Shown here in pieces: positions 3,401 through 63,690 of a stretch of DNA of 64,000 nucleotides (position 1 is its first letter; every line of letters starts with the position of its first letter). Made by a program: the position numbers and the translations under genes. The notes under the pieces were generated by a model. That model was given only the letters and a program-made list of their open reading frames with translations, ran no database searches and was not told where the DNA came from. Source of the stretch: a virus; the IMG/VR virus record IMGVR_UViG_3300045051_000987, positions 49,553 through 113,552 of that record, one strand, 5' to 3'.

Positions 3401-3420
3401 GTGTTCACCCGGGTGAACAC
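3401..3420. promoter_or_regulatory. Dispersed palindrome copy 1 (GTGTTCACCCGGGTGAACAC)
   Basis: Perfect 20-bp palindrome between a CATGAT promoter motif and an SD. Confidence 0.85.
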
Positions 3421-3452
3421 CGGGCGTCGTCGTCAGCTCCCATCATGCCGCC

Positions 3453-3866
3453 TCACCTGATCCGGATCCGCTCGCCGGTCGGGAGCACCTCGAAGATCAT
3501 CGCGGCCGCGTACTTCGATCGCTTCTTCCGCGTGGTGGTGCTCTGCGCCGAACGCACACGGGCCGTCCACTTCGCACGGCGGAGCTTGCCGCTCGGTCGA
3601 TCGGGCCCGCGAGCGATCCACGTCTGACCCGCTTCGCTCTTGAGCCACGCGAGGAAGACCTCGAGAGGGAGGTCCGACTTCGTGTTGTTGCAGGGGTGGC
3701 ACGCGATCACGACCTTGCTCCCGCCGCGCGACTTCGGCTCGACGTGATCGAGCGTGGCCTCCTCGCGGAGGAGCGGATCACCGCAGTACGTGCACGGCAC
3801 CGTTGGTTCGGGTGCGTCAGCGTGCCTTCGACGCTCACGCGTGAAGATGGCGTCTCGTCGGGTCAT
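3453..3866 (-). CDS. HNH endonuclease
   Basis: CTYCG...TLDHVEPKSRGG...ACHPCNNTKSD is a typical HNH/McrA-like motif. Confidence 0.9.
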   Translation of the reverse strand: MTRRDAIFTRERRRHADAPEPTVPCTYCGDPLLREEATLDHVEPKSRGGSKVVIACHPCNNTKSDLPLEVFLAWLKSEAGQTWIARGPDRPSGKLRRAKWTARVRSAQSTTTRKKRSKYAAAMIFEVLPTGERIRIR

Positions 3867-3877
3867 GTCTCACAGGC

Positions 3878-4240
3878 TCACAGTGTGGTGTCCTTCCGGA
3901 GCTTGATCAGCCGATGGGTGCGCGCGAACGCGCCGAGCGTGAGGTTCCGATCGACGCCCTGCGCGTGGCGGAGGTGCACGAGGAGCTCGGAGGCCTTCCA
4001 CTCCTCGGCGCCATCGAGCTTCACGAAGGTCACGGCGCCGAGCGTCGCGCGCGGTGAGCGCGGATCGCGCACCGTCCACACCGAGCCTTCGAGGAAGGCC
4101 GAGAGGTCGTCCATCGTCACCGCGAAGGCGTCTCCCCACTCCCACGAGCCCGGGATCTCGTCACCGAGCTCAGCGGGGACGGCGAACGGATCCGCGGATG
4201 CGAGGAGGGCCTCGACCTGTTCCTCGAGCGTAGGCATCAC
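3878..4240 (-). CDS. Hypothetical protein
   Basis: 120 aa; overlaps the stop of the upstream gene. Confidence 0.65.
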   Translation of the reverse strand: MMPTLEEQVEALLASADPFAVPAELGDEIPGSWEWGDAFAVTMDDLSAFLEGSVWTVRDPRSPRATLGAVTFVKLDGAEEWKASELLVHLRHAQGVDRNLTLGAFARTHRLIKLRKDTTL

Positions 4241-5784
4241 CCGGTGAACCGCTTGAAGAACGCGACCACGCGATCACGCGTGCGTCCGCGCTGGTAGGTC
4301 TGCGGCTCGAAGTCGGCGAGCGTCCTCGCGTCGAGCTCACGCGCGCGCCGGGTGTTCTCGTGGTTGAGGATGTCCATCACCTCGCCCGCTTCCCCGCGCA
4401 CGTCCGGGCGGCTCTCTCGGAGCTGCGCGGTCGCCATGCCGAGCACGTGCTCGAACCGCTTGTGCGCGAGCATCTTCGGATCGAGGACACGCCACGTCTC
4501 GAGCACGCCATCGCTCACGAAGCGCGAGTCGAGGTCATCGAAGCCGTCGGGCTTCACGCGGACGCAGCGCCACCCCACGAGGTCTGACTGCGTCTGCTTC
4601 TCGATGAGCTTCACAGTCGTGCCCGAGATCGACTGACGCACCTGACCGCGCTCGAGCGGCTCGCGGTTCCGAGGATCGATGCTCTGATCGATCGCGTTCC
4701 ACAGCTCGTCTCGAGCAGGGTCGCCCCATCGCTCGGCGATGTTCGCGCGGATGCGCGTGAGCTGCTTCTCGAGCTCTTCGAGCGCTTCGTCGAACGTGCG
4801 GTGCGGCTGAGGGCCGAACGCTTCGACCATGATCGAGAGGAGCCGCTTCCGAAGCGTGTCGAGCCGTTCGCCGAGGTCGAAGTGCTCGTGCGTGAAGATG
4901 CGCTCGATCACGTGCTGCATGGTGTCGCCGCTCGCACCCGCGGCGCGGAGGTGGTGCACCGCTGCGAAGTAGAGCCGCGTGCGGAGGTTCTCGATTGTCG
5001 GCTTCTCGACGATGGTCCCCTTCGGGAGCTTGATCTTGATCGTCGCGAAGATCCCGTCGCGCGTCGATCGCTCGATCTGCACGTCCTCGACGAGCTCGGC
5101 GTTCGGCGCCATCACGTAGCCGAAGACGTCGACCGTCGACGTGTGGAGCACCTCACCGACGCGCGCGCCGGCCTCGCCGACGGGCGTGACGTGGATCTTT
5201 CGCTCGACCGTGCGGAGCTGCTCGTCGAGCGCCGGTGCTGGCTCGGTGTTCCCGAGCACGAACGCATCGCGCACCTTCGATGCGACCGCGGCCGCGCCGA
5301 TGAGTGCTTCGCTGAGCACGACGACGGGCCTACCGGGGGTCGCGTGTCCGCTCTCGTAGAAGAGGCGCATCTCGTTCGCCCACGTCGAGAGCGTGCGCAT
5401 CTCCTCGCGCGTGATGGTGAAGGTCTCTTCGTCCCTGCTCAGCATGATCTCTGCTCCTCTCACGAACTGCTCGAGCAGCTCGGGCCATCCTTCGACGTCG
5501 GCGTGCCCCGTCTCGATCGCGCTCACGTCCGCGATGCTCAGATCGAGGATGTAGGCCACCTCGCTCAGCTTGAGCTCGCGCTCGCGACGAAGGCGCCGGA
5601 AGCGTTCACCACGCTCGCGGAGCACCTCGCTCGGCTCCTCGAACGTCATGACCTCGCCGATGCCGCACGGGAGCTCCTCGGCCGCCGCTTGGCACGGGCC
5701 GGAGCCATCGGGACCGCAGCACGTGCGCGTCACGAAGCTGCGCGTCGATCCGGTGGGCTTGGCCCTCTTGATCTTGAACGCCAT
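4237..5784 (-). CDS. XRE-family HTH domain protein (large, multidomain)
   Basis: GERFRRLRRERELKLSEVAYILDLSIADVSAIETG is an XRE/Cro-C1 HTH near the N-terminus. Confidence 0.75.
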   Translation of the reverse strand: MAFKIKRAKPTGSTRSFVTRTCCGPDGSGPCQAAAEELPCGIGEVMTFEEPSEVLRERGERFRRLRRERELKLSEVAYILDLSIADVSAIETGHADVEGWPELLEQFVRGAEIMLSRDEETFTITREEMRTLSTWANEMRLFYESGHATPGRPVVVLSEALIGAAAVASKVRDAFVLGNTEPAPALDEQLRTVERKIHVTPVGEAGARVGEVLHTSTVDVFGYVMAPNAELVEDVQIERSTRDGIFATIKIKLPKGTIVEKPTIENLRTRLYFAAVHHLRAAGASGDTMQHVIERIFTHEHFDLGERLDTLRKRLLSIMVEAFGPQPHRTFDEALEELEKQLTRIRANIAERWGDPARDELWNAIDQSIDPRNREPLERGQVRQSISGTTVKLIEKQTQSDLVGWRCVRVKPDGFDDLDSRFVSDGVLETWRVLDPKMLAHKRFEHVLGMATAQLRESRPDVRGEAGEVMDILNHENTRRARELDARTLADFEPQTYQRGRTRDRVVAFFKRFTG

Positions 5785-7431: not shown

Positions 7432-8430
7432 TCACGGCGTGAAGTCGGCCTTCGGCGTGCTCGTCTCCGAGATCTCGACCTGCAAGCCTCGCAAGCGCTT
7501 CGTGACGCGCGCGGGCGTGCGCGGGTCGAGATCGATGCCCACCCCACGACGGCCGAGCACGCACGCCGCCTCGAGCACCGTGCCGGTCCCGACGAACGGA
7601 TCGAGCACCACGTCGTTCGGCCGCGAGCTCGCGAGGATGCACCGGCGCGGGAGCTCCACCGGGAACGTCGAGTAGTGGTCGCCCTTGTACCGCCCGCCTC
7701 CGAACGACCACACGTCTCGGAGGTTCGCGCCCATCGGCTCGCCGTTCTCGTCGAGCTTCGCCGCGCGCTTCTTGCCCCACCGCCCGAGCCCGTACGACGC
7801 AGCTCGAGGATCGGGAACCGTCGCCGATCGCGCGGGGCCCTGCGCCTGTAGGCGGAGCGTGTTCGGCCTGAGCGGCTGTCGCACGGCGTTCGCGTCGTAG
7901 AAGTAGTGCGCGCGCCGCGAGAAGAGGAACACGTGCTCGTGAGACGACGTCGGCCGATCCTGCATCGAGCCCGGCACGGGCGAGGGCTTCGACCAGATCA
8001 CCTCGCTGCGAAGGATCCACCCGTCGGCTTGGAGCGCGAGCGCGACGCGCCACGGGATCCCGATCAGGCTCTTGCGCGGCAGACCGCACAGCGTGCTCTT
8101 GCTCTCGATGTTCGGAACGAGGTCATGTCGCTCGGGCGTCGAGAGCTTCGAGCTCTTGCCCGTGCTCCCTCGACGCGAGCCCGAGTAGCTGTCGCCGAGG
8201 TTCAACCACATCGTGCCGTCCTTCCGCAGCCCGCGGCGCGCCTCACGGAACGTGAGCACCATCGCCTCGACGAACGCATCGGGCGTCGGCTCCATCCCGA
8301 TCTGCCCGTCGAGCCGGTAGTCGCGGAGGTGCCAATAGGGCGGGCTCGTCACGATCGTCTGCACGTTCTCGACGGTGCCGGCTAGCTCGCGCGCGTCGCC
8401 GACGAGGATCCGAAACCGCTCCTCGGTCAT
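7432..8430 (-). CDS. Beta-class N4-cytosine/N6-adenine DNA methyltransferase, Cfr9I/SmaI-like family
   Basis: TSPPYWHLRDY..QIG, WLNLGDSY, LIGIPWRVALALQADGWILRSEVIW, HYSTFP, VLDPFVGTGT. Confidence 0.92.
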   Translation of the reverse strand: MTEERFRILVGDARELAGTVENVQTIVTSPPYWHLRDYRLDGQIGMEPTPDAFVEAMVLTFREARRGLRKDGTMWLNLGDSYSGSRRGSTGKSSKLSTPERHDLVPNIESKSTLCGLPRKSLIGIPWRVALALQADGWILRSEVIWSKPSPVPGSMQDRPTSSHEHVFLFSRRAHYFYDANAVRQPLRPNTLRLQAQGPARSATVPDPRAASYGLGRWGKKRAAKLDENGEPMGANLRDVWSFGGGRYKGDHYSTFPVELPRRCILASSRPNDVVLDPFVGTGTVLEAACVLGRRGVGIDLDPRTPARVTKRLRGLQVEISETSTPKADFTP

Positions 8431-8642
8431 CGGTGTTCACCCGGGTGAACAGGCTTCGAGAGCTCGGCGCGCGCCGCGATCATCGCGTGCTTCAACGGCG
8501 AGCCGGTCGGGAGCTCCTCGGTGCTCATGTCGTGAAGGCTGAGGTAGTCCTCGATCGACGTCGTGAGCAGCTCGAGCACCTCGTGCGAGACGCGCGCGCG
8601 CTCGGCGTGCTGCTCCGCTGTGACCTGTGGGCGTGTCGCCAT
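8427..8642 (-). CDS. Small hypothetical protein
   Basis: 71 aa; ATG 6 nt after CATGAT variant; 3' end contains a palindrome copy. Confidence 0.65.
   Translation of the reverse strand: MATRPQVTAEQHAERARVSHEVLELLTTSIEDYLSLHDMSTEELPTGSPLKHAMIAARAELSKPVHPGEHR
8434..8451. promoter_or_regulatory. Dispersed palindrome copy 2
   Basis: 18-bp core, 3 bp upstream of the Cfr9I-like MTase ATG. Confidence 0.85.
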
Positions 8643-9386: not shown

Positions 9387-9748
9387 CGGTCGCCGGCCTT
9401 CTTGATCTCGGTCGACGTGAGGATCGGCGGAGCCTGCGGGACCTTCGAGATGATCTCAGCACCGCACTGACCTGCGACGTCGGCGGAGGGGTCGTGCCAG
9501 TGATCGCCGGCGTGTCCGCGTCGAAGCGTGCACACGAAGACGCCCTCGCTCACGAGCGTCACCGCGGTCTTGAGCGGGCTCGTCGCCGGCATCGCGGCCG
9601 CCGCCTCGGCCATCGCGACGTCATGCCGCCGAAGTACTTCGCGCAGCGCGCGAGCGAACGTCGGCCCGTCGATCCCCGCTGCGAACGCGAAGGCCTCGAG
9701 CCCACGCACGAGGCGCTTCACCTCTTCGTCGTCGCTCACCTTGATCAC
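9383..9748 (-). CDS. Hypothetical protein
   Basis: GTG start after SD GGAGG and CATGAT motif; CTLRRGHAGDH motif. Confidence 0.6.
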   Translation of the reverse strand: MIKVSDDEEVKRLVRGLEAFAFAAGIDGPTFARALREVLRRHDVAMAEAAAAMPATSPLKTAVTLVSEGVFVCTLRRGHAGDHWHDPSADVAGQCGAEIISKVPQAPPILTSTEIKKAGDR

Positions 9749-11517
9749 GTGGGCACCTCCGCGAGCATCATGCCGCCCATCGGGATCCCGTTCGGCTGAA
9801 CCCACACCGATCCCGAGTCGAGCGAGAAGCCGCCGAGCTCGGACGCTGCGAGCGTCACGAGCATCTTCTCCGCGATCGCGCGCGCCGCACCGACGGGCAC
9901 CGCGTTGCCGATGCGCTCCCGCCAGTCGCTCTGACTCTTGCCGGCGAGCACGAGCGGCGCGCCCTTCCACATCGTCGGGATCCCTTGGAGCGACGCAAGC
10001 TCGAGCGTCGTGAGCGGGCGGTGCCATGTCCCGTCCTTCGCGATGATCACGGGGAGGAACGACGGCGCCTTCTTCGGCGTCGCGGCCGCGAGCCTGAGCG
10101 CCTCCTCGATGTCGGCGTTGAACGATGGGCCCGTGCGCGGCTCCGCCACCGCGTACGCGCCGCACCCAACATGCGCGGTGCCTGCGATCGTGCGCGCGGC
10201 CTGCTCCCACCCGAGCACGGCATAGCCGGCGTCATAGGCGTACTTCACGCGGACATCGGCCACACGCGGATCACCGACAGCGGGCCCGCCCGATCCGGGC
10301 TGCGTCGCCTTGATCACCGTGCGCGCGGGCTCGCTCCACTTCCCGACGGCGTACTTGTTCCAGTGCCGGCCCTCGCTCGGCGGGAGCTCGAGCGCGCGCG
10401 GGTCGGCCACCGCGAAGCGACCGTTCGAGGGGAGGCTCTCGCCGCACACCGCGCCGGTCGGTTCCTCCCACGGCGAGACGCCGTAGGCGCCCGCGTGCGG
10501 CCCTCGGGGGTCGGCGACAGCGAACGCCCCGGTCGAGACGCCTGCTCGCCCTGTGACGGTCGGCGCGGGGCCCTCCCATGCCTTCACGCCGAGCACGCCC
10601 CCGAACCATTCGATCCGCGGTTCCTGCACGACGCCGATCGCGTTCGCACCGGCGCCCGTGATCGTGCCGGTCGGCTCATCCCACGGCGCGACCTCGTGCC
10701 GCTTGAAGACCTCGCGCCTCGCCTGACCCTCGGCGAGCACGCCTTCGAGGTCACGCCAATCGCCGCCGGCCGGGATCATCGCGATGCGGACCCAGTTGAG
10801 GAACGAGATCTTCGGGAGCTCGTGGATCTTCCCGAACGCGCGCGCGTCCTCTGTCGCCGGCACGGGGAGCGACTCGAGCACCTCGCCGCACGCGCGCACC
10901 CGCTTCTTCGGGGGCTGGTAGAGCAGGCTCGAGCACCGCGCCTCGAGCCTCGCGACGAGCAGGTAGCGCCGTCGACGCTGAGCGAGCCCGCCGATCTCAC
11001 CGCAGTCGTGGAAGCCCTCGTGCAGCCGGTAGCCGACGCCGCGGAGGAGCTTCTTCACCTGCTCGAGCATCGCCTTCGCGCGCGTCTTGAGGCGCGGCAC
11101 GTTCTCGAGGAGCACGAGCCTCGGGAGCGAGCCCTTCCACGCCTCGATCATCTTGCGCGTCCACGTCAGCGCGAGCGTGTTCATGCGCTGATACTTCTCG
11201 GTCTCGGCGAGCTCCTTCGGGAGGAGCCCGCTCGCCCCCTTGCACGGCGGGCTCATGAAGACGCAGTCGGGACCGATCGCGCCGTACCGCTCGAGGAGCT
11301 CGGCGACGGTGATCTCCTCGACGTCGCGGTGCCACGCCGTGCGCGTGTCGGTGAGGTAGTCGAAGTCGCGACACGCGTCCGGATCGAAGTCGATCCCGCC
11401 GATGCACTCGAAGCGGAGCGCGTGCCCGAAGAGGTGCGCGTGCGCATCGAGGAAGCCGCGAGCTCCCGCGCCGAGACCACCGAAGGGGAAGAGCGCGCGG
11501 AAGACGATCTCGCTCAC
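9745..11517 (-). CDS. C5-cytosine DNA methyltransferase with repeated variable region
   Basis: Motif I FGGLGAG, IV SPPCKG, VI ENVP, VIII QRRRR, X GNAVP; five ~30-aa W..P..T...AV.DPR repeats. Confidence 0.92.
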   Translation of the reverse strand: MSEIVFRALFPFGGLGAGARGFLDAHAHLFGHALRFECIGGIDFDPDACRDFDYLTDTRTAWHRDVEEITVAELLERYGAIGPDCVFMSPPCKGASGLLPKELAETEKYQRMNTLALTWTRKMIEAWKGSLPRLVLLENVPRLKTRAKAMLEQVKKLLRGVGYRLHEGFHDCGEIGGLAQRRRRYLLVARLEARCSSLLYQPPKKRVRACGEVLESLPVPATEDARAFGKIHELPKISFLNWVRIAMIPAGGDWRDLEGVLAEGQARREVFKRHEVAPWDEPTGTITGAGANAIGVVQEPRIEWFGGVLGVKAWEGPAPTVTGRAGVSTGAFAVADPRGPHAGAYGVSPWEEPTGAVCGESLPSNGRFAVADPRALELPPSEGRHWNKYAVGKWSEPARTVIKATQPGSGGPAVGDPRVADVRVKYAYDAGYAVLGWEQAARTIAGTAHVGCGAYAVAEPRTGPSFNADIEEALRLAAATPKKAPSFLPVIIAKDGTWHRPLTTLELASLQGIPTMWKGAPLVLAGKSQSDWRERIGNAVPVGAARAIAEKMLVTLAASELGGFSLDSGSVWVQPNGIPMGGMMLAEVPT

Positions 11518-12806: not shown

Positions 12807-13604
12807 TCACTGCGCGTCGGCGATCACGTCGTCTTCGTCGTCGCGGAGCGTCTCGCCCTCGCCGGGCATCTGTTCACCCGGGTGAACACGCGTCGCCTTC
12901 CGCTCTTCGAGGTAGCTCAGCACGCGCGAGAGGCGCGGTTCAGCGAACCCGAGCGGGCGCAACGATCCATCGCCGAGCACGGTGTCTCGCCCCTCGAAAA
13001 GAGCGGCCACGCCCGCCGTCGCAGCGCCGCACACCGGATCGCAGACGACGTCGCCGGGGCGCGAGTAGTCCTCGACGATCTGCCGCATCGCCCAGAGCGG
13101 CTTACCGCCCGTCATGAGGAGCTTCTCGCGCGGGCCCATGTACGCGCCGCGTCCGATGGTCCCCCAGCTCGAGAGCTCGGCGGGGCGCGCGACGAGGATG
13201 AAGTAGCTCCACGGGCTCGGGCCGTCGCCTCGAAGGCGCACGCGCGAGCCGGTCACCACGAGAGGGATCGGAGGGAAGCCGGCGTAGTACCCTGCGCGCT
13301 CGGCCGCGCGTTGCCATGCGGGCCAGAGCACGTGATCGGTGATCGAGACGAGCCACCCTCGATGCACCTCACGCCACGTGTCGACGAAGACGTGCACGTC
13401 TTCCGGCGTCCAGAACGCGTAGGGGATCGACGAGCGCCCGCCGGGCCGCGTGCTGTCGTGCCCGGTGTGCGTGCGCTCGGAGTAGGGCGTGTCGGCCGTG
13501 ATGAGGTTCACCACCTCACGGCGCGCGCGCAGCTCGCGAGCGAGGTCGGTGGCGTCAGCGTGGAAGAGCGAAACGCGCCGGTGCTCGAGGAGGGAGATCG
13601 TCAC
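12807..13604 (-). CDS. Divergent beta-class amino-DNA methyltransferase
   Basis: ITADTPYS (DPPY-like), GKPLWAMRQIVEDYSRPGDVVCDPVCGAAT (motif X-I); GTG 6 nt after CATGAT. Confidence 0.8.
   Translation of the reverse strand: MTISLLEHRRVSLFHADATDLARELRARREVVNLITADTPYSERTHTGHDSTRPGGRSSIPYAFWTPEDVHVFVDTWREVHRGWLVSITDHVLWPAWQRAAERAGYYAGFPPIPLVVTGSRVRLRGDGPSPWSYFILVARPAELSSWGTIGRGAYMGPREKLLMTGGKPLWAMRQIVEDYSRPGDVVCDPVCGAATAGVAALFEGRDTVLGDGSLRPLGFAEPRLSRVLSYLEERKATRVHPGEQMPGEGETLRDDEDDVIADAQ
12871..12888. promoter_or_regulatory. Dispersed palindrome copy 3
   Basis: 18-bp core in the 3' end of an MTase gene. Confidence 0.85.
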
Positions 13605-13611
13605 CGCGGCA

Positions 13612-13869
13612 TCATGCCGCCGGACGCTTCCGCCGTCCCGGGATCCGATCGAAGCGTCGAAGGCCGAGCACCACGATCGGCGAGCCATCCGGCCACGTCG
13701 TCGGCTCCTCGCCCTTCGCGTGCGCGACGCCGATCGGGCACCTCTTGCACGTCGGATCCTCGCCGGCCTTGTGGCGTTTGCCGCACGAGCTCCGAGGGAG
13801 CCGCGTGTGGATCCGCTCGCACTTGAAGACCGGGAGCCGCGCGGACGACGAGAGCGGGAGCGTCTTCAT
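13612..13869 (-). CDS. Small Cys-rich hypothetical protein
   Basis: FKCER...SCGKRH...CKRCPIG; SD GGAGG. Confidence 0.6.
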   Translation of the reverse strand: MKTLPLSSSARLPVFKCERIHTRLPRSSCGKRHKAGEDPTCKRCPIGVAHAKGEEPTTWPDGSPIVVLGLRRFDRIPGRRKRPAA

Positions 13870-15135: not shown

Positions 15136-15585
15136 TCACGCGAACACACCGGGGGGCGGGAGGGTCTCGCGCGCGCGGATCGCATCGCTCGAGCGCTTCG
15201 ACGCTGCGACGATCCACTCGAAGACGTCCTCGTCTCGCTCGATCTCGAGGAGCAGCGACCCGAAGTGAAAGACGCCCATGTGCGGGCCCGAGCACACGAT
15301 CGGGCGCCCCGTCGCGTAGGCGATCCCGACCTCGAAGCCTCCGCCGGTCGAGCCCTTCTTCGGCGTGAGGAACCAGATCAGGTCGGCCGAGAGCACCGCG
15401 GCGATCTCGGCCTGCGCGATCGCGGGGCTGCGATGGTCGGCCGCGTCGGTGGGCGAGCACCCCGCGGAAAGCACGGCGGGCGTCCAGTCGTAGGTGACGA
15501 GGACGCCCGCGGCGCGGAGCGCCTCGATCCATCGAGACGCGCGATCAGCTTCGGTTGATCCCGAGGCGACGTAGACCTTGAGCAC
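15136..15585 (-). CDS. Nucleoside 2-deoxyribosyltransferase / dNMP N-glycosidase-like protein
   Basis: KVYVASG...EIAAVLSADLI...STGGGFEVGIAYATGRPI; GTG 6 nt after CATGAT. Confidence 0.78.
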   Translation of the reverse strand: MLKVYVASGSTEADRASRWIEALRAAGVLVTYDWTPAVLSAGCSPTDAADHRSPAIAQAEIAAVLSADLIWFLTPKKGSTGGGFEVGIAYATGRPIVCSGPHMGVFHFGSLLLEIERDEDVFEWIVAASKRSSDAIRARETLPPPGVFA

Positions 15586-15625
15586 GGCGGCATCATGCCG
15601 CGACGCCTCGGGCGGTGTCACTCGG

Positions 15626-16063
15626 TCAGAGCGCGGCCTCGAGCTCCGAGAGCGCGGCGAGCGCCCCGAGATCGGCACGACCGATCCGCTTCAACGTGAC
15701 CTCGCGCATCCACGTCGCGACGGGGACCTTCTTGCAGTGCTTCGCGATCGCGGCGCCCTGCTTCGTCGTGCTCTTCACCGAGAAGTTGCTCGCGCCCGCG
15801 AGCGTGATCGCGCGCTTGCCGGTGCCCTTCATGGCGTCGACGCCGAGGCCGAGCCCACCACCGATCGCCTCGAGCGAGGCTTCGCGCACGAGGGACGGGG
15901 GCGAGATCTTGTGCTTGCGGCAGTAGTCGCCGATCGCGATGCCCTGCTCGTCGTTCACTCGGATCGTCACCGAGTGATCGAGCGTCCCACCCTTGTAGAG
16001 CTGCGGGCGCCCCGCGCCCTCGCGCCGTCCGCCCTTCGTGCTCGCCTTCTTCTTCGTCGCCAT
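15626..16063 (-). CDS. Putative DNA-binding protein with two RHH/CopG-like repeats
   Basis: GGRREGAGRP followed by two copies of (V/F)(T/S)(I/V)+...QGxAIxx(Y/H)C...xxxxxREx(S/T)L. Confidence 0.65.
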   Translation of the reverse strand: MATKKKASTKGGRREGAGRPQLYKGGTLDHSVTIRVNDEQGIAIGDYCRKHKISPPSLVREASLEAIGGGLGLGVDAMKGTGKRAITLAGASNFSVKSTTKQGAAIAKHCKKVPVATWMREVTLKRIGRADLGALAALSELEAAL

Positions 16064-17870: not shown

Positions 17871-18079
17871 GACGCGACCCCGATCGCCTCGCGACCCTTC
17901 GCCGTGATCGCGAACGTGCCCGCGGGCGTCCGCTCGAGGAGCCCGGTCGCAAGGCACCGGCGGAGGTGCTCGACGTCGACCGCCTCGACGCGCGCCGGGA
18001 TCTCCTTCGTCCCGTTCTCCGTCTTCTGGCGGAGCACGAATAGGTTCGTGCTCGTGGGCGTGCCCTTCGGCTTCCTCAC
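17867..18079 (-). CDS. Small winged-helix-like hypothetical protein
   Basis: LRRCLATGLLE...FAITAKGREA. Confidence 0.6.
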   Translation of the reverse strand: MRKPKGTPTSTNLFVLRQKTENGTKEIPARVEAVDVEHLRRCLATGLLERTPAGTFAITAKGREAIGVAS

Positions 18080-45770: not shown

Positions 45771-45786
45771 GCCCCATCATGCCGCG

Positions 45787-51209: not shown

Positions 51210-52616
51210 TCAGTGGGTCCGGACGTCGGAGATCACGACGCTCACAGCGACCGCCCACACCAGATCGTTGTTCGTGTCGGCGTCGACGCCGCCCTTGATT
51301 GCGAGCCAGTACTCGCGCGCGGTGTTCGTCGCGCCGGTCGTCACGACCGTGTGACCGCCACCGAGGCCCGAGCTCAGATCGATCACCTGCTCGTTCGCCG
51401 TCGTGTCGTCGAAGGCCGACGCGATCGACACAGGATCCGGGTCGCCGTTCGGCGTCGCGAAGTCGGGCACCTTGTAGAGAAGGGCGAGCTGCATGCGGTC
51501 GCCGCCCGTGCGCGCCGCGCCCGGCGTGCAGATCATGCGGACGTTCGAGATGATCTCGTTGTGCTTGAGGAACTCGTTCAGCGAGCGCTGTAGGCGTCCC
51601 GAGTCGGCGTCGATGCGGATGCCCGTCGACTGGATGCCCGGAAGACCGCCCTGAAACTGGATCTTGTCCTCGGCGACCGTGCTCGCGTAGCGCGTCCATC
51701 CCTGCATCGGGATCAGGAACGTCCGGAGGCGCGCCGGGCTGAATCCGTACTCGCCCGTGTTCACGGTGACCGCGTCCGCGTTGATGTCGTCGACGTCGAT
51801 GATGTCGAAGCCATCCATGTCGATGTTCCCGAGCATCACGCCGCCCGCGCGCGCGAGCTTCTCGGTGTCGAGCTCGGCGATCGCGGTCTGCACGTTCGTC
51901 GCTGCGACGTTGCCCGTCGGAGAGAACGAGACGGCCGATCCGGCGTGCGCGGGGCTCGCCGCGACGTGGGCCGAGAGGCTCCCACCCGTGCCGGCGAGCG
52001 CCGTCGCGAGTGCCTGGATCGCTTCCTCCGCAGTGCCCACGCCGATCACGGTGCCGGTCGTCTTGTAGGCCCACTGCCGGCGCGTCGTGCTGATGTTGCC
52101 GTTGACGATGCTCGAGGCGCCGTAGGCGAGCGTGATGTCGGCGAGGAGGATCTGATCGCCGCGCAGCGCGGGCGCGACGGGCGAGGCGCTCTCGGTGCCC
52201 GCCGCGACGTTGAAGGTGAAGCTCTCGGCGCGCACGAAGTACACGGTCGCGGCGTTGCCGTCGACGCGCGGATCGCTGAGCACGCGATTGAACTCCGCGA
52301 AGATCGAGAGGATGCGACTGTTCGTGCCACCGACGACCGCGGTGTTGAGCCCGTCCTCGTCGACGGCACAGTTGACCGTCTGCGTGCTCGGGATCGCGAT
52401 GCGCTGTCCCGTCTGATCGTAGACGACGCCCGGCCCCGAGACCTGCACGGTGAGGTTCGGCGAGACCTGCTGGGTGACCGCCATCCCCGCCGTGACACCG
52501 ACGTGTCCGAAGTCAGAGGCGAGCGCTCGATCGGCGTTCTCGAGCTCCGCGAAGGCCGCGTCGAGCTCGGCCTCGGTGACCTTCTGCCTGAAAAAGAAGT
52601 CGCGTCGGTTCGCCAT
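51210..52616 (-). CDS. Tail fibre / baseplate-attached protein
   Basis: MANRRDFFFRQKVTEAELD N-terminus; ATNVQTAIAEL fibre-type segment; follows the P2-gpI-like gene. Confidence 0.75.
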   Translation of the reverse strand: MANRRDFFFRQKVTEAELDAAFAELENADRALASDFGHVGVTAGMAVTQQVSPNLTVQVSGPGVVYDQTGQRIAIPSTQTVNCAVDEDGLNTAVVGGTNSRILSIFAEFNRVLSDPRVDGNAATVYFVRAESFTFNVAAGTESASPVAPALRGDQILLADITLAYGASSIVNGNISTTRRQWAYKTTGTVIGVGTAEEAIQALATALAGTGGSLSAHVAASPAHAGSAVSFSPTGNVAATNVQTAIAELDTEKLARAGGVMLGNIDMDGFDIIDVDDINADAVTVNTGEYGFSPARLRTFLIPMQGWTRYASTVAEDKIQFQGGLPGIQSTGIRIDADSGRLQRSLNEFLKHNEIISNVRMICTPGAARTGGDRMQLALLYKVPDFATPNGDPDPVSIASAFDDTTANEQVIDLSSGLGGGHTVVTTGATNTAREYWLAIKGGVDADTNNDLVWAVAVSVVISDVRTH

Positions 52617-54601: not shown

Positions 54602-55312
54602 TCAGGTCTGCCGACGGACCTCGAGATGATCGAAGAGCGCGCGCCGCGTGACGTCGCTCGAGCGGAAGCAGAAGCCAGCCCGGCCCGACGTGAAGGGAGC
54701 CGAGCCGCTGTTCACGCCGAGCGAGTCGTCGACGAACTCGGTCATGCCGGGGATCGCGGTCCACGTCGGCGCCGTGCCGAGCGCGTGCGCTGCGAGGTCG
54801 TTCTGAAAGACCTGGAGTCGGACGTCGCCGACGTCGTTGAAGATCATGTCGAGGCGGAGGTGCGTCCACGCGTCGGCGTCGATGTCCACCGAGCTCGTCG
54901 AGCGGCGGAGGATGCCGTTGCCCGCTGCCGGCGCGAGGTCGGGAAGGCCCGCGGAGAGCACGCCCTTGCGGAGCACGATGCGCGAGGGGTCCGCGTCGCT
55001 CAGGCCGAGCATGTAGCCCTCGTCATTGATCGAGGGACCTTGCAGGCCGATGAAGAGGAAGGCCGAGAAGCCCAAGGGCCCGCCGCTCGCCGCGCGCTTG
55101 ATCGCGCCCGTGATGCGCCCGCCCTTCGCCATCGGCGCGAAGTCTACGAGGTTCACGAACGAGCCGACGCCGCCGATCGACGTGTCGAGGCTGTGGAAGC
55201 CGTAGACGAACGAGCCGCCGCCGTTGGGGGGCGTGAAGCCCGCGGACACGCCGCGCTTGATGCTTCCGGATCCGAGGGAGTCGTTGAGCTCTGTCCAGTC
55301 TGCTTCGGCCAT
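54602..55312 (-). CDS. Virion structural protein (beta-sandwich, putative)
   Basis: MAEADWTELND...; SD GGAGG; structural module. Confidence 0.75.
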   Translation of the reverse strand: MAEADWTELNDSLGSGSIKRGVSAGFTPPNGGGSFVYGFHSLDTSIGGVGSFVNLVDFAPMAKGGRITGAIKRAASGGPLGFSAFLFIGLQGPSINDEGYMLGLSDADPSRIVLRKGVLSAGLPDLAPAAGNGILRRSTSSVDIDADAWTHLRLDMIFNDVGDVRLQVFQNDLAAHALGTAPTWTAIPGMTEFVDDSLGVNSGSAPFTSGRAGFCFRSSDVTRRALFDHLEVRRQT

Positions 55313-55323
55313 GTGCCTCCGGG

Positions 55324-55347
55324 GCGTGTTCACCCGGGTGAACACGC
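55324..55347. promoter_or_regulatory. Dispersed palindrome copy 10
   Basis: 24 bp between a TACCAT motif and SD GGAGG. Confidence 0.85.
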
Positions 55348-55391
55348 GGCCGATGGTAGCTGGGTCCCCGCGCGCGCGCAGCGCATCGCGA

Positions 55392-56264
55392 TCAGGGCTG
55401 CTCGATCACCCAATGGAACGCGCGATCGACGGCGACGTAGAAGACGCCCACGCCCGCGTCCGTCACGTCGACCTGCGTGCCCGCGGCCGCGAGCGCGACG
55501 CGGAACGTCGTGCCCGTGAGCCCGCTCGCGATCACGTAGTACTCGAAGACCGAGTTGAGGCCCGCGGGGAGCGCGCCCGGGGTCGCACCGGACACACGGA
55601 ACGTGACCTTGTCGTTCGCCACGAGCCCGTGCGCGACGCCCGTCGTGAAGAGGTTCGTCGACGGGTCCGCGGTGACCTGTCGCTCGGGCACCGCGTACTC
55701 GAACGAGTCGTAGGAGTCGGGGACGAACGCACCGAAGAAGGCCGTGACGCCCGCGCCCATCGTGAAGTCGTAGTCGTTGCCGGCGCCCGTGCCGCTCCAT
55801 CCGTCGGAGAAGTCCTCGAACGCCTGCGGGGTGAGCGAGCTGTCGAAGCTCGCCGCCGTGCTCGCGCCGAGCGTGAACGAGTAGCTCTCGTTCGAGTCCC
55901 ATCCCTCCTCGAAGTCTTCGACCGGCTCGGTCGATGGATCGAAGAGCGCGTCGGTGCCGGTGTTGAGCTCGAAGAGATAGGCCTGGTTCCCGTCCCATCC
56001 CTCCTCGAAGTCTTCGAGCGCTTGGCCGGGGCTCACGCTGAGATCGAAGAGCGGGGGCGCGGTGTCGGCGAGCTCGAACGCGAAGAGGTAGTCGTCGTTC
56101 GCCCACTCGCTCTCGAAGCGCTCCTCGTCGTGCGCGGGCGTCTCGGTGCCGAACGCTGCGACCTGCTCCGCCGCCGTCGTGACGATGATCGTCCACGCCT
56201 CGGGCACGCCCTCGCCGGGGGTGCCTGCATCATCGTCCTCGAAGCCGAGGTTCGTGAGCGCCAT
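55392..56264 (-). CDS. Acidic virion protein with EDFEEGW repeats
   Basis: Four E(D/R)F(E/S)xxW repeats; C-terminal HGL...V.F...LPAGL...YYV domain. Confidence 0.75.
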   Translation of the reverse strand: MALTNLGFEDDDAGTPGEGVPEAWTIIVTTAAEQVAAFGTETPAHDEERFESEWANDDYLFAFELADTAPPLFDLSVSPGQALEDFEEGWDGNQAYLFELNTGTDALFDPSTEPVEDFEEGWDSNESYSFTLGASTAASFDSSLTPQAFEDFSDGWSGTGAGNDYDFTMGAGVTAFFGAFVPDSYDSFEYAVPERQVTADPSTNLFTTGVAHGLVANDKVTFRVSGATPGALPAGLNSVFEYYVIASGLTGTTFRVALAAAGTQVDVTDAGVGVFYVAVDRAFHWVIEQP

Positions 56265-60469: not shown

Positions 60470-62614
60470 TCAGGCCTCGTTGCCGCCCCGATCGAACGCG
60501 AAGACGCGGAGCGTGGGGGAAGCCGTCCATCCGCCCGTGCGAAGCACAGTGAAGCGGAAGCCGTTCGTGATCGGCACGCGCTCGCATGCCGGCGTGGAGT
60601 AGTTGCCGATCCAGGCGTCGCCGTCCCAGCACAGCTCGATGATCCCGCCGAGCTCAACGCCGAGAAGGATCCGACGGAAGAGCCCGGTGTCATCGGTCAC
60701 GTCGACCGACACGGGCTGCGCGATCGCGATCGGCGTGCCCGGCGTCGGCTGCGGGTTCGAGATCACGGGGGCCGTCGTGTCATCGACGTCGATGACTTCC
60801 GGATCGACGTCGATGCTCTCGGTGTCCTCGAAGCGGTCGCCTGCCTCATCGATCACCACCGCGCGCAGCACGAAGTCGGTTCCCCACCCGATCCCGTCGC
60901 GCGTGATCTCGAGGGTGATGTCTCCTCCGCTCGGCGTCTCGATCACCGTGTAGCCCTCGCCCGCGCCGTCGTCGTAGACGAGCTCGGTGCGATCGGAGAA
61001 CTCGGCGTAGACGAGCACGTTCTCGAGCGGGTTCGCGCCCTCGGTGATCTCGACGGTGATCTCGGCGTCGGTCGTGATCGTGCCCGTCGGATCGAAGTCG
61101 AACGTGGGCACGAGCGCGGGCGAGATCGTGAAGGAGCCGTCGTCGGCGCCGAGACCTGCGCCGTTCGTCGCTTCGACGCGGAGCACCATCGCCTCGGCCC
61201 ATCCGGGCGTGCGCTCGAGGTCGACGAAGAGCCCGCCGCCGTTCGGGGTGACGGTCATCGAGTAGGGCGCGATCGCGACCGAGCTCAGGTCGAGCACGTC
61301 CTCGAAGATCACCTCGGTGCGATCGGAGTACTGCGCCGTGATCGTCACGCCGAAGATGCCGGTGCCCTGCACATCGAAGCGCACCGCCGCGCCGTACGCG
61401 ATCGCACCCGGCGAGGTGACGAGGCTGACGTCGGGCGCGCCGCCGAGGAATCCGCCCCACGGATCGAACGTGCCCGAGACCATGTCGGGGATGAGGTTGG
61501 AGTCGACCTCTGCGCCGCTCGCCGGCACCGTTGAGCCGTCCCACAGAAGCCAGAAGCCTCCGGCCTGCGCGAAGAGCGTGCGCCCCGCGGTGACGTTCCG
61601 GTTCGTCGGGCCCTCGGTCGAGAGCTTCTTGATGAACCGCGATTGACCCTTGATCCCGCCGTAGCACGTGGGTCCCGCGTACATTTCGGTGTTCGTGAAG
61701 GGAGGCGTGCCCGTCGTCGGCTTCACGACGCCGTTCCAGTAGTAGCAGGGCCCGATCAGATCCACGTCGCCGTCGTACGGGTTCGCGCCGCCGGGGTTCA
61801 GGATGTTCGTCGACCCCCAGTAGCAGGGCCTCATGATCGCCCATCGGTGAGCGGCGTCTTCTCGAGGGGCCGGGATCGGAGGTCGTCCCCACGGCCCGAA
61901 GTTGCTTTGCGTGATCGTCGCGACACCGCTCACGCCGGGATCGCGGTACGTCCAGCCGGCCGAGTAGTGCGACGCGAGCGTGCCCGTCGGCGTGTTGAAC
62001 GGCGCGGAGTAGCAGCCCGGCGACCACACGATATAGGGATCGTCGTCCTCGGGGTGCGGACCGATCACGCACTCGAAGAAGAGGCCTCCGATGATCTGCC
62101 CGGCCGCGTTGCGGAGGTAGACTGCGAAGCTGTAGCCCTCGTCGGCGTCGCCCATGATGTAGTCGGCGCGTGTGACCGTGTCACCGCCTCCGAACGAGTT
62201 GCCGTTCATGTTCAGGCTCGGACGTCGCTCGCCCACCGCGAGGAAGGCGTCGGTCGCCGTCGGTGCGACGTTCGCAGCGAGAGCTCCATCGCCGGTTCCG
62301 ATGAACCCTGCCGCCGCCGAGTAGGCCACGCTGATGTTGTCGCTCGCGTTGTTGAACGCGGTGTGCTGAATGAGGAGCTCGCGCCCGTTCGGAGCGACGA
62401 GGCGGATCCACGCGCGCCGGTTCGTGATGTGACCTGCTCCGCCGTCGACGCTCGTCGAGTAGCCGGTGATCACGTTGCCTGTCGGCGAGAAGTTGCCGCC
62501 CGTGCCGTCGCCTGATCCGCTCGCGACCCAGCCCGCGGCGATCATGCGCGTGATCGTCTCGTAGAGCGCCTGCTGAGAGCTGTGCGCGTTGTCGACCGAG
62601 AACGTGAACGCCAT
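60470..62614 (-). CDS. Virion/tail-associated protein (N-domain + Ig-like domains)
   Basis: RMIAAGW...SGDG...WIRLVAP; C-terminus GGWTASPTLRVFAFDRGGNEA. Confidence 0.8.
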   Translation of the reverse strand: MAFTFSVDNAHSSQQALYETITRMIAAGWVASGSGDGTGGNFSPTGNVITGYSTSVDGGAGHITNRRAWIRLVAPNGRELLIQHTAFNNASDNISVAYSAAAGFIGTGDGALAANVAPTATDAFLAVGERRPSLNMNGNSFGGGDTVTRADYIMGDADEGYSFAVYLRNAAGQIIGGLFFECVIGPHPEDDDPYIVWSPGCYSAPFNTPTGTLASHYSAGWTYRDPGVSGVATITQSNFGPWGRPPIPAPREDAAHRWAIMRPCYWGSTNILNPGGANPYDGDVDLIGPCYYWNGVVKPTTGTPPFTNTEMYAGPTCYGGIKGQSRFIKKLSTEGPTNRNVTAGRTLFAQAGGFWLLWDGSTVPASGAEVDSNLIPDMVSGTFDPWGGFLGGAPDVSLVTSPGAIAYGAAVRFDVQGTGIFGVTITAQYSDRTEVIFEDVLDLSSVAIAPYSMTVTPNGGGLFVDLERTPGWAEAMVLRVEATNGAGLGADDGSFTISPALVPTFDFDPTGTITTDAEITVEITEGANPLENVLVYAEFSDRTELVYDDGAGEGYTVIETPSGGDITLEITRDGIGWGTDFVLRAVVIDEAGDRFEDTESIDVDPEVIDVDDTTAPVISNPQPTPGTPIAIAQPVSVDVTDDTGLFRRILLGVELGGIIELCWDGDAWIGNYSTPACERVPITNGFRFTVLRTGGWTASPTLRVFAFDRGGNEA

Positions 62615-62623
62615 GACGAGACC

Positions 62624-63622
62624 TCAGAAGATGGGGCGCGTCGCGCCGTCCCACGGGATCGTGATCGGCCCGAGCGAGAGTCGCGTGAGATCGTTGTTCA
62701 GCCGGAAGATCCCGAGCTTCTGTAGCGAGGTGCGGAAGAGGCGCGAGATCCCCTTGAAGCCTCGCTCGGTCGTGTGCGTGTTGCCGCCGCGCCAGTACAT
62801 GACCGGCATGTCGTCGATCGGACCGTCGGGCCTGAGCGAGAGCCGGTCATCGCTGAGCGGCCCGATCGAGTTGAACCCGCCCTCTTGCGTGCCTCGAGCG
62901 ACGCACGGATACCCGACGAACGCCGCGCCCGTGAGGCCCTTCTTGAACCAGCCACGGATGCACGCGCTCGTCTGCGTCGGCGTGACCTGGTAGTGCATCG
63001 CGCCTGCGTTGTTCGCGGGGCCGAACGTCGCAGCGTTGAAGTGCTGCCCGAAGACCGCGGGGTCGGCGTCGAGCGCGTGTCCGCCCTCGAGCACGTCGAG
63101 CATGAGGATCGTGTCGTAGCCGGGTGAACCGGTCTGCGGGAAGAGGCGCCGCGCACCGATGAAGAACGAGTGCTCTTCGTCAGCGTCGCCCACGAGCATG
63201 TCGACGAACTCGCCTTGGATCACTGCGGTCGTTCCCGTCGGCGTGTTGATGCATCCCTGTTCGTCCGCTGCCTCACCGCGCGCGGTCGCGGAGGGCGAGC
63301 CTCCGGTGAATCCGGTGCCATCGCTCGAGTACCAAAGGCGGATCTGATCCGTGTTCAGCGCGCTTGGGTGCGTGATCAGGATCGAGCGGCGCACCGTCGC
63401 GGTCGCAGGCTGGCGGAGCTCCATCCACGCGTTCGCGAGATCGAGCGAGCCCGCGTAGGGGCCGCCGGGAGCGTGCACGTCGCCGGCCGCTGAGTAGTTG
63501 CCGCCGGAGCCGTCACCCGAGCGCGCGACGCTCCATCCATTCGCGACGAGGAACTCCTTCATCCGCCACAAGAACTCGCCGTGCCGGATGAAGCGAACGT
63601 TCGGGAGGAGTGACCACGCCAT
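62624..63622 (-). CDS. Virion protein (N-domain paralog)
   Basis: FLVANGW...SGDGSGGNYS...AWMELRQP...DADPAV...KGISRL...PWDG. Confidence 0.75.
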   Translation of the reverse strand: MAWSLLPNVRFIRHGEFLWRMKEFLVANGWSVARSGDGSGGNYSAAGDVHAPGGPYAGSLDLANAWMELRQPATATVRRSILITHPSALNTDQIRLWYSSDGTGFTGGSPSATARGEAADEQGCINTPTGTTAVIQGEFVDMLVGDADEEHSFFIGARRLFPQTGSPGYDTILMLDVLEGGHALDADPAVFGQHFNAATFGPANNAGAMHYQVTPTQTSACIRGWFKKGLTGAAFVGYPCVARGTQEGGFNSIGPLSDDRLSLRPDGPIDDMPVMYWRGGNTHTTERGFKGISRLFRTSLQKLGIFRLNNDLTRLSLGPITIPWDGATRPIF

Positions 63623-63668
63623 GCGACGCGAGCGTGCCCGCGCGCGCGGATCACGTCCACCTCGCTCC

Positions 63669-63690
63669 CGTGTTCACCCGGGTGAACACG
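63669..63690. promoter_or_regulatory. Dispersed palindrome copy 11
   Basis: 22 bp, intergenic, upstream of the gene starting at 63622. Confidence 0.85.

Follow-up and report, generated by a model that had tools for sequence, protein, structure and literature searches.

What reads an 18-base palindrome, TGTTCACCCGGGTGAACA, that recurs along the genome of an uncultured phage? The preliminary description of the window, which is the 64,000-nucleotide stretch analysed here (bases 49553-113552 of the 113,552-bp virus record), proposed an operator or parS-like system used by one dimeric phage protein for global repression, genome partitioning or compaction. On the evidence given below, the palindrome most likely serves a phage DNA-binding protein as its docking site, and a parS/ParB system is not the likely explanation.

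The palindrome array and its placement

The eleven exact copies reported for the window are all present at the positions first given, and a count over the whole record, which the preliminary description had recommended, brings the number to 21. There are no near-matches with one to three mismatches in the window or with up to two in the whole record, and 100 shuffles, the null for exact copies in the window, returned no match. The site consists of 7-bp arms around a CCGG centre. An extension to 20-24 bp had been claimed, and it stands up to 22 bp: a 20-bp form (G...C) is found in 14 of the 21 copies and a 22-bp form (CG...CG) in nine, six of them among the eleven in the window, whereas past 22 bp there is no conservation. 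With a total length of 18-22 bp, the half-site reads (CG)TGTTCAC, and the centres of the half-sites are 11 bp apart. The flanks of the identical copies are unrelated to one another. The genome is 68% GC, whereas the palindrome stem is AU-rich. CCCGGG is rare elsewhere in the genome, with 18 occurrences outside the motif compared with 133-656 for most other GC-only 6-mers; GGGCCC is also low, at 63.

Outside the phage, only unrelated single copies were found in 596 Gb of prokaryote genomes, in IMG/VR and in JGI metagenomes, and the array is specific to the phage among the sequences searched. A host REP-like repeat, which the preliminary description had named as a finding that would overturn its reading, was sought in 185,579 species and in candidate host genomes, none of which holds more than one copy, and the palindrome is not a repeat of that kind. 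The copies in the window are placed as follows.

3402-3419: palindrome in the 5′ leader of the minus-strand gene 2972-3382, with the promoter-like motif GCGGCATGATGGG 25 nt before, the SD AAGGAGG 6 nt on and the ATG at +19; 33 nt past the stop of the HNH gene 3453-3866
8434-8451: palindrome in the last seven codons (PVHPGEHR-stop) of the 71-aa ORF 8427-8642; ATG of the N6/N4 DNA methylase gene 7432-8430 3 nt on (ATGA overlap)
12871-12888: palindrome 21 codons short of the stop of the methylase-like gene 12807-13688, where it encodes part of an unconserved C-terminal tail (TRVHPGEQ)
23629-23646: palindrome providing the stop of gene 23632-24030 (CSPG-stop; TGA within the motif); GTG start of the next ORF 1 nt later
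32725-32742: palindrome 3 nt past the stop codon of the gene for the family-B DNA polymerase (32746-35958); also read in frame within gene 32181-32858, as part of its N-terminal tail (EPVHPGEHE)
40158-40175: palindrome in a 388-nt gap of weak coding signal that separates the primase-like gene (40422-41435) from the UvrD-like helicase gene (37869-40034); -10-like hexamer TAGGTT about 63 nt downstream of the copy
45789-45806: palindrome 17 nt past the stop of ORF 45824-46432, with GCGGCATGATGGGG 3 nt downstream and the GTG start of the helicase gene 44313-45770 at +18
45838-45855: palindrome at the 3′ end of ORF 45824-46432 (final codons NVFTRVNTSSR-stop), with the copy at 45789 lying 49 bp away; the two bracket the stop of this ORF
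51172-51189: palindrome 20 nt past the stop of gene 51210-52616, in a stretch of about 280 nt ahead of gene 50296-50889
55327-55344: palindrome in the tail/baseplate module, in the 5′ leader of gene 54602-55312, with the -10-like hexamer TACCAT 8 nt before, then cgcccc, the SD GGAGG and the ATG at +14; 47 nt past the stop of gene 55392-56264
63671-63688: palindrome 10 nt past the stop of ORF 63699-63980 and 48 nt ahead of the ATG of gene 62624-63622

Over the whole genome, 12 of the 21 copies fall outside even longest-ORF calls, where 20,000 null trials gave 3.3 on average and never more than 11. Of the remaining nine, all but one are close to either end of an ORF, at most 38 codons from a start or 21 from a stop. 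In seven cases a stop codon precedes the copy by only 2-10 nt. The copies are spaced more evenly than at random (CV 0.61 vs 0.96, P 0.011), at intervals of 11 kb or less. The earlier remark that promoter motifs, SDs or start codons adjoin most copies is borne out for those at 3402, 8434, 23629, 45789 and 55327; more generally, the copies are found at gene boundaries, mostly just past a stop codon. Moreover, since only two to three of the 19 promoter-like GCGGCATGAT motifs have a palindrome copy within 100 nt, classical promoter control is not the pattern.

Probable site variants in relatives

Four phage proteins carry the palindrome in their tails, and their homologues, at 46-76% identity, have the peptides VHPGG, STRVD or SNRFD in otherwise unconserved tails. 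Such peptides are present in 20 of 27 homologues of the TerS-like protein, in 14 homologues of TerL, in 12 of the methylase-like protein (12807-13688; STRVD, VHPGG or SNRFD) and in two of the three closest homologues of the protein that follows PolB (32181-32858). For the last of these, the two closest full-length homologues have STRVD at the same place. VHPGG, STRVD, SNRFD and STRVN each back-translate to a palindrome of 16-20 nt, while of random 6-mers taken from these tails no more than 2% could encode one of even 16 nt. The relatives thus appear to keep the site at the same positions and to have changed its sequence in concert, since their tails back-translate to symmetric variants such as TGTCCACCCGGGTGGACA, in other reading frames. 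VHPGG and STRVD are found in proteins whose longest contigs are of equal length (21,820 and 90,861 bp), and the two peptides fit a single site, GTGTCCACCCGGGTGGACAC, read in two frames. A hybrid form, STRVN, appears at terS as well as at terL, in proteins encoded on a 3,205-bp contig. Taken together, the tails suggest allele changes of T4/A15 to C4/G15 and of C7/G12 to A7/T12. In the phage itself all three reading frames reported for the covering ORFs, VHPGE(H), FTRVN and CSPG-stop, are indeed used, and since the relatives apparently use other frames at the same loci, the target of selection is the nucleic acid, not the protein, which supports the argument of the preliminary description.

Identical copies with unrelated flanks, located in dispensable protein tails and apparently changing in concert within a lineage, could also come from a selfish REP- or MITE-like mini-palindrome, multiplied through copy-and-paste or gene conversion and merely tolerated at gene ends. 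Such an origin is improbable. A search for the Y1/RAYT transposase (PF01797) found none, the element measures just 18-22 bp and has no terminal repeats or target duplications, and the single copies at most in candidate host genomes and the rarity of CCCGGG elsewhere in the phage likewise speak against spreading. Finally, four loci are kept across relatives at only about 50% protein identity, so the copies seem to be old and maintained and not recent insertions.

Possible readers of the palindrome

Since nearly all phage genes lie on the minus strand, every copy is transcribed, and in one direction. The transcribed palindrome could then form a 7-9 bp hairpin for a sequence-specific RNase or RNA-binding protein and set mRNA ends, stability or termination. 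The copies just past stop codons occupy the usual place of 3′ hairpins, and both putative allele changes would keep base pairing. In the first 20 kb of the window a terminator consensus scan found canonical terminators at chance level only, so another signal may serve in their stead. Against a role in RNA, three of the four single-copy contexts examined give a fold that does not beat shuffles (z -0.2 to -0.9), and the minimum-energy structure is something other than the palindrome hairpin in two of them. The AU-rich stem is also at odds with the high GC content, the CCGG loop is itself symmetric, which an RNA does not need, and two copies abut start codons that a hairpin would occlude. In addition, the STRVN hybrid points to a C-A mismatch instead of the G-U intermediate that one would expect. 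An RNA element is judged unlikely. An intrinsic terminator was rejected separately: the RNA hairpin is weak and there is no U-tract, no T-run following any copy.

The same symmetry through the CCGG centre counts in favour of DNA binding. The consensus parS is a 16-bp sequence, TGTTNCACGTGAAACA, and the Noc site, ATTTCCCGGGAAAT, has 14-16 bp; the preliminary description regarded the outer bases of the palindrome as parS-like and its centre as Noc-like. A ParB-family CTPase could in that case bind the copies as a centromere or occlusion array for plasmid-prophage partition or compaction. The phage encodes a 221-aa protein that matches PHROG 'ParB-like partition protein' families (E 3e-25), and dispersed palindromes are used by at least one member of the ParB family, KorB of RK2 (PMC11790492). 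However, PF02195 (ParB_N), which matched 11 of 14 control genomes, has no match in six frames at E up to 1. The 221-aa protein has GHGR instead of the GERR box and a short zinc-ribbon-like C-terminal tail, has no Pfam match, reveals no recognisable HTH family at the level of sequence profiles, and is encoded directly upstream of a C5 methylase gene. The site is also 2 bp longer than parS, at 18-22 bp, and its half-site spacing is different. Genome partitioning fares no better, since searches for ParA (PF13614, no match at E up to 1) and for an integrase (PF00589 and PF00239) found neither, and there is therefore no sign of a prophage to partition or silence. The parS/Noc reading has become very improbable.

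A further possible reader is the packaging machinery, in that the small terminase might recognise the palindrome, with three copies around terS-terL forming a pac-like nucleoprotein site and the dispersed copies marking the DNA for terminase loading. Copies are densest, with four in 2.7 kb, around the gene that immediately precedes TerL, which matches phrog_38 (E 2e-51) and was separately confirmed as a terminase. The product of that gene has an N-terminal HTH, a helix of roughly 100 residues and an acidic tail, its best viral structure matches are annotated as small terminase (E 1.6e-3), and clusters of Terminase_5 and Sf6_terminase are among its Atlas neighbours. GenBank phages contain no match to the TerS-like protein, and their identity to TerL does not exceed about 24%. 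Three copies bracket the TerS-like gene, lying 146 nt upstream of its ATG, in codons 10-15 and 46 nt past its stop, and P0016 suggests a like pair about 200 nt apart in a relative. The even spacing of the array and the search for an integrase, which found none, are consistent with such a function as well. On the other hand, support for the TerS assignment of the HTH gene is only moderate, and the putative recognition helix varies widely among relatives that would share one allele. Conservation at four unrelated gene boundaries points to local roles, whereas a position-free array would not need it. To our knowledge, moreover, pac sites are single loci and not palindromes. A packaging array is therefore possible, though we consider it unlikely.

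The preferred reading is that of boundary sites bound by a dimer. The 21 copies would be high-affinity sites for one phage-encoded DNA-binding protein with twofold symmetry, and the spacing of the half-site centres would place both on the same face of the helix. A dimeric DNA-binding protein had been proposed from the outset, and the full symmetry of the site together with this spacing fits it. Selection would hold the sites in place at set gene boundaries across a clade of high-GC myoviruses that appear to be virulent, and their sequence would shift in step across all copies of a lineage, as if co-evolving with the reader. The bound protein may act as a genome-wide regulator or as a roadblock that punctuates transcription units, a role suggested because most sites lie off promoters, just past stops, in 5′ leaders or in first or last codons. 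That the palindrome is a protein-bound DNA site is probable; a regulatory or roadblock role is plausible but somewhat less than an even proposition, and the explanation as a whole is given an even chance. A comparison of the phage proteins with Pfam and PHROGs yielded no clear dimeric regulator, and the four binders suggested earlier (36011-37207, 15626-16063, 4237-5784 and 39926-40414) all lack a convincing DNA-binding domain. A weak candidate for the reader, slightly more credible than a packaging array as such, is the TerS-like HTH protein, which is encoded outside the window (genome 45073-45906). The total invariance of the copies, with zero near-matches, is unusual among transcription-factor sites and counts against this explanation.

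Comparison with known dispersed-site systems

In the SPP1/SF6-type pac region, the sites of the terminase small subunit flank the promoter and the 5′ end of terS, about 200 bp apart. The arrangement here is alike in that the TerS-like gene, beside TerL, has copies on either side of its start, 190 bp apart. In contrast, the SPP1/SF6 pac is one locus per genome and not a perfect palindrome, whereas the phage described here has 18 further copies elsewhere, 21 in all round the genome.

The operators of the P1 C1 repressor are dispersed, asymmetric and degenerate. P1 C1 and RK2 KorB resemble the present case in that one regulator would serve a dozen or more sites genome-wide, some of them far from promoters, and the OB site of KorB is likewise a palindrome. 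However, KorB is a ParB-family CTPase with KorA and IncC as partners, a protein set of which none was found here, and P1 and RK2 differ from this phage in persisting as plasmids.

The stoperators of Cluster A mycobacteriophages (L5, Bxb1) number twenty to thirty-odd, are nearly identical and occupy short gaps between genes in all modules, a distribution also seen here; one phage protein reads them and blocks elongation (PMC6550527, PMC9283540). Their site sets are lineage-specific (PMC6550527), and the motif varies together with the repressor (PMC6550527, PMC9283540), which is a further likeness. Unlike the perfect palindrome, stoperators are asymmetric, 13-14 bp long, oriented with transcription and read by a monomer, and their phages are temperate, whereas the phage here has no match to PF00589, PF00239 or PF13614 and no recognised repressor.

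The closest precedent is provided by the unexplained 17-bp repeats of Cluster O mycobacteriophages. In Corndog the dyad repeat TGTTCGGNNNCCGAACA is present in more than 30 copies with invariant arms, and both its reader and its function are unexplained (PMC4351075). As in this phage, where more than 20 invariant-arm copies lie mostly at gene boundaries of a genome not obviously temperate, the Cluster O copies are distributed genome-wide, intergenic or near gene ends with about a third in ORFs, and have no tie to predicted promoters (PMC4351075). The outer arm bases are the same (TGTTC...GAACA), whereas the inner ones differ, and the variable 3-bp spacer of Corndog (TGTTCGG-N3-CCGAACA) is replaced by a fixed 4-bp CCGG, so that the spacing is off by one base. 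The phage here is, furthermore, an unrelated uncultured myovirus, for which, unlike Cluster O, protein tails indicate orthologous positions and allele change across relatives. An unlikely but far-reaching extension would be that a clade of virulent, high-GC myoviruses marks its chromosome at least every 11 kb with a co-evolving palindrome read by the packaging machinery, through the TerS-like HTH protein, or by a new phage chromosome-organising protein. If true, the same site would serve two ends, the punctuation of transcription and the recognition of phage DNA for packaging or condensation, and a function would be suggested for the long-unexplained repeats of Cluster O.

Copy number, form and specificity of the palindrome

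The eleven copies of the 18-bp palindrome TGTTCACCCGGGTGAACA that the preliminary description located in the window are all present, precisely where it placed them, while near-copies with one to three mismatches number zero there and dinucleotide-preserving shuffles gave 0 in 100. The whole 113,552-bp record holds 21 exact copies and no others with up to two mismatches. The two flanking bases on each side extend the symmetry, giving a 20-bp palindrome in 14 of the 21 copies and a 22-bp one (CG...CG) in nine. No conservation is seen farther than 2 bp from the motif on either side among the 21 copies, so that the unit is the bare palindrome and not a piece of a longer element. The half-site TGTTCACC seldom stands alone, with 25 and 21 occurrences on the two strands and 21 inside the palindrome. 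The array is real and strongly non-random, and offers a testable allele series.

The exact 18-mer was found as a single copy in one other IMG/VR contig, in 27 contigs of 596 Gb of species-representative genomes (one copy each, estimated to be near the chance level) and in 37 metagenomic contigs (again one copy each), none of them related to the phage. A host REP-like repeat was rejected, since genomes and metagenomes have single copies only and none is phage-related. The single copies in bacterial genomes have no common neighbour gene or shared regulator beside them, the neighbours being aquaporin, YceI, a phosphonate-binding protein and others, and a literature search for the motif gave no match. 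Much less probably, the array could represent a selfish mini-palindrome, against which speaks that no RAYT transposase was found in the phage genome.

The record is rated complete by CheckV, its ends being arbitrary because tail genes lie at both of them. It has a GC content of 68%, and the genes with a codon-position GC signature are almost all on the minus strand. The gene content is that of a myovirus (tail sheath, tape measure, portal, protease-like protein, head-tail adaptor, baseplate wedge and large terminase, TerL), with replication and recombination genes for a family-B polymerase, UvrD-like and DnaB-like helicases, a further helicase, an SbcC-like protein, a primase and a RecA-like protein. 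Neither tyrosine nor serine recombinases were found in the genome, so nothing suggests lysogeny. Cultured phages are very distant, with at most about 22-26% identity for the polymerase, sheath and TerL.

Two C5 methylases, two N6/N4 methylase-like proteins, an HNH protein, ArdC and a Mom-like protein are also encoded. This DNA-modification and anti-restriction set is unusually large, and is accompanied by a nucleoside deoxyribosyltransferase-like protein and, just upstream of a C5 methylase gene, a ParB/Srx-like protein.

Modification and anti-restriction genes
Window 7432-8430
Window 9745-11517
Window 12807-13688
Window 15136-15678
Window 17058-18209
Window 18392-19273
Genome 37648-40179

Outside the motif, CCCGGG occurs in 18 copies, while most other GC-only 6-bp palindromes have 133-656 and GGGCCC (63) is also low. 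CTGCAG (0), CCTAGG (0), CAGCTG (1) and ACCGGT (3) are nearly absent from the whole genome, against 15-39 expected, which together with the rarity of CCCGGG outside the motif looks like restriction avoidance.

Placement at gene boundaries and proposed recognition as DNA or RNA

Positions were read on the transcribed (minus) strand against longest-ORF calls, which over-extend 5′ ends. Despite this, 12 of the 21 copies lie wholly outside ORFs, with a null mean of 3.3 and none of 20,000 trials reaching 12. Eight of the other nine lie at most 38 codons from an ORF start or at most 21 codons from a stop, and the sole mid-ORF copy is at genome 37128. Seven copies start 2-10 nt past a stop codon, for instance 3 nt past the polymerase stop at 32746, and two overlap or abut one, the TGA at 23629 being supplied by the motif itself. 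Four window copies are placed as follows:

45789/45838, palindrome pair bracketing a stop codon
3402 and 55327, palindromes each flanked by a -10-like hexamer on one side and the next gene's SD on the other

The gap from the motif to the next start codon or -10-like hexamer ranges from 1 to >70 nt, so there is no fixed promoter geometry; a fixed-distance promoter element was rejected on this variability and on the lack of flank conservation past 2 bp. The palindromes are spaced more evenly than random (CV 0.61 vs 0.96, P 0.011), and the largest gap between them is 10.8 kb vs 18.6 kb expected (P 0.014).

Four copies fall within 2.7 kb around the packaging genes (genome 45009-47747, outside the window), among them the following features of P0001, a small-terminase-like (TerS-like) protein:

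Genome 45073-45906, gene of P0001 (277 aa), with a TAGGCT -10-like hexamer directly 5′ of the ATG
146 nt upstream of the P0001 start region, palindrome
Codons 10-15 of P0001 (GVHPGEH), palindrome
46 nt past the P0001 stop, palindrome, doubling as codons 14-19 of TerL in its long form

Longest-ORF calls leave a 1.2-kb "non-coding" gap at genome 45077-46299, much of which (45077-45906) belongs to the 5′ part of the TerS-like gene; the other 393 nt, upstream of it, hold one palindrome and the TAGGCT hexamer.

Two other promoter-like motifs are distinct from the palindrome. The oriented motif GCGGCATGAT(GGGG), in which the GGGG often but not always follows, has 19 occurrences in the genome, all of them on the minus strand and all within genome positions 37343-96209, usually at a gene head. 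It looks like an early/middle promoter or start context, and a palindrome lies within 100 nt of only two or three of the 19.

Window 1575-46657, minus strand, GCGGCATGAT, for example at 3451, 6318, 7426, 9776, 12802, 13620, 14496, 15601, 22938, 25497, 32175, 35947, 44321, 45785 and 46657

Hexamers of the form TANNNT (TACCTT, TACGCT, TACCAT) precede structural genes at genome 20600-31100 and window 55350-55365; at 55327 the hexamer stands upstream of the palindrome and the SD after it. In the head module the hexamers lie 7-12 nt upstream of the ATG, a spacing that points to late transcripts without leaders and perhaps to a host of actinobacterial type.

Less probably, the palindrome might act as a sequence-specific RNA element instead of a DNA site. 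The sole single copy that folds well is the CG-extended 55327 (-20 kcal/mol, z -2.9), while three of the four single-copy contexts fold no better than shuffled sequence (z -0.2 to -0.9), and in two of these the minimum-energy structure is without the palindrome hairpin. In the stem three of seven pairs are G-C, within a 68% GC genome. No copy is followed by a T-run, and across the window's first 20 kb terminator-like matches do not exceed the chance level; an intrinsic terminator was rejected on these grounds and on the weak folds. The would-be loop, the central CCGG, is itself symmetric, and a symmetric centre is required by a DNA dyad and not by an RNA hairpin. The half-site centres are 11 bp apart. 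Together, the weak folds, the missing T-runs and the symmetric centre make it more likely that a symmetric candidate protein recognises the site as duplex DNA. As a separate observation, at the RNA level the two palindromes at 45789-45855, which are 49 bp apart, could base-pair into a long stem of 22 bp (-53 kcal/mol, z -7).

Probable site variants in related phages

IMG/VR lacks close relatives, and relatives were compared at the protein level at four loci. First, the 27 homologues of the TerS-like protein (33-70% identity) have N-terminal tails unrelated in sequence and length, yet 20 of the 27 carry VHPGEH or VHSSEH (2), VHPGG (3), STRVD (12), or STRVN, SPRVD and SNRFD (1 each). Next, the closest homologues of the methylase-like protein 12807-13688 have STRVD (8), VHPGG (3) or SNRFD (1) in their unconserved C-terminal tails, and a 98%-identical sibling has VHSGE where this phage has VHPGE, which would imply that one base of the palindrome centre differs at this locus. 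The N-terminal tails of TerL homologues likewise contain STRVD (12), SNRFD (1) and STRVN (1), and that of the sibling VHPGEH. Finally, for the protein after the polymerase (32181-32858), STRVD is found at the corresponding spot in two of the three closest full-length homologues and was not found in more distant ones (at most 44% identity). The sibling phage is a 111,684-bp contig with proteins 98-99% identical, and its 1003-aa TerL (P0082) contains intein/homing-endonuclease domains (PF05204, PF14528) absent from this genome, whose TerL gene lies at genome 43106-45076.

By back-translation, each tail peptide can be encoded by a perfect palindrome of 16-20 nt, while of 6-mers drawn at random from those tails just 2% allow one of as little as 16 nt. 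The sequence GTGTCCACCCGGGTGGACAC, read in two frames, gives GVHPGGH and VSTRVDT, and departs from this phage's site at a single symmetric pair of positions (T4 to C, A15 to G). Proteins with VHPGG and with STRVD share equal-sized longest contigs of 21,820 bp (P0014/P0041) and 90,861 bp (P0006/P0090), which fits one such sequence in two frames. SNRFD, found in the TerS-like, methylase-like and TerL families alike, would imply an additional symmetric change of C7/G12 to A7/T12, and STRVN, which proteins of a 3,205-bp contig show at terS as well as at terL, a half-changed hybrid TGTCCACCCGGGTGAACA.

From these protein sequences and equal-sized longest contigs, rather than from DNA, we infer that the array is present across the clade, that at least four positions would be orthologous although the flanking tails have diverged and the frame has shifted, and that one allele may be common to all copies of a lineage. 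Relatives found via the sheath protein (L073-L080 and the 83.6-kb record G001) contain no same or analogous palindrome; a frequent 10-mer CGTGGCGCGC in G001 was rejected as an analogue, as it occurs on both strands with unrelated flanks and no extended palindrome. No repeats were found in a distant TerS-like relative (L090), and guessed variant sites GTCGACGCGCGTCGAC and TGTCCACCCGGGTGGACA are single copies in IMG/VR, a set without close relatives.

Candidate readers and comparison with known systems

The specificity, apparently conserved positions and apparently concerted change of the site point to a dedicated reader protein. The preliminary description had offered a parS/Noc-like reading, for which a ParB-family protein would be needed, and this reading is not supported. 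There is no ParB_N match and no ParA in the genome. In the sole PHROG "ParB-like" protein, encoded directly upstream of a C5 methylase gene, the GERR box reads GHGR, the tail is of zinc-ribbon type and no HTH could be detected. The four binders proposed there (36011-37207, 15626-16063, 4237-5784 and 39926-40414) have HTH matches that are marginal at best, and the coding signal of ORF 39926-40528 is poor where the motif lies.

The best positional candidate is the TerS-like protein. P0001 has no Pfam family. Its AlphaFold model (pLDDT 78) begins with an HTH-like head of three helices, continues through a helix of 97 residues and a helical hairpin, and ends in an acidic, disordered tail. Among viral structures the best matches carry the annotation small terminase (E 1.6e-3, probability 0.99), and the Atlas places P0001 next to viral HTH proteins, of which some have a Terminase_5 or Sf6_terminase domain; PDB structure searches with the model gave generic helical matches only and PDB sequence searches nothing useful. 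On balance, P0001 appears somewhat more probably than otherwise to be the small terminase subunit.

As a less likely, rival reading, the palindromes might form a terminase recognition array. As for the TerS-like protein, its putative recognition helix is, however, highly variable among relatives that appear to share one allele, which weakens it as a highly specific reader. For covariation between the TerS HTH and the site allele, the allele-1 sequences number two and are close kin.

The most likely reading would be that a single symmetric phage protein binds all copies. Conservation of the positions locus by locus at gene ends and beginnings favours a cis role on expression, in which the bound site may act as a roadblock or insulator between transcription units, and may repress where it lies just downstream of a start site, as at the TerS-like gene, 3402 and 55327. 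The allele set, with TTCAC, TCCAC and hybrid arms, is a resource for finding the reader; should the reader truly be the small subunit of the terminase or a novel phage-DNA organiser, it would represent a new principle of phage genome management.

Among known systems, the stoperators (PMC6550527, PMC9283540), the P1 C1 operators and the KorB OB sites (PMC11790492) are functional analogues, although this array lacks their defining features. The nearest described counterpart comes from Cluster O mycobacteriophages, phages unrelated to this one and not obviously temperate, whose 17-bp repeat TGTTCGGNNNCCGAACA has more than 30 invariant copies, mostly at gene boundaries and with unknown function (PMC4351075); its outer bases are the same as those of this palindrome. 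Invariant dyad-repeat arrays in lytic phages have been known since the Cluster O report of 2015 and never explained. The present array, with no counterpart in any searched host genome (single copies only), is a second, unrelated example. Relatives whose proteins are only about 50% identical would have the site at matching gene boundaries, and within a lineage all copies appear to undergo one and the same symmetric sequence change.
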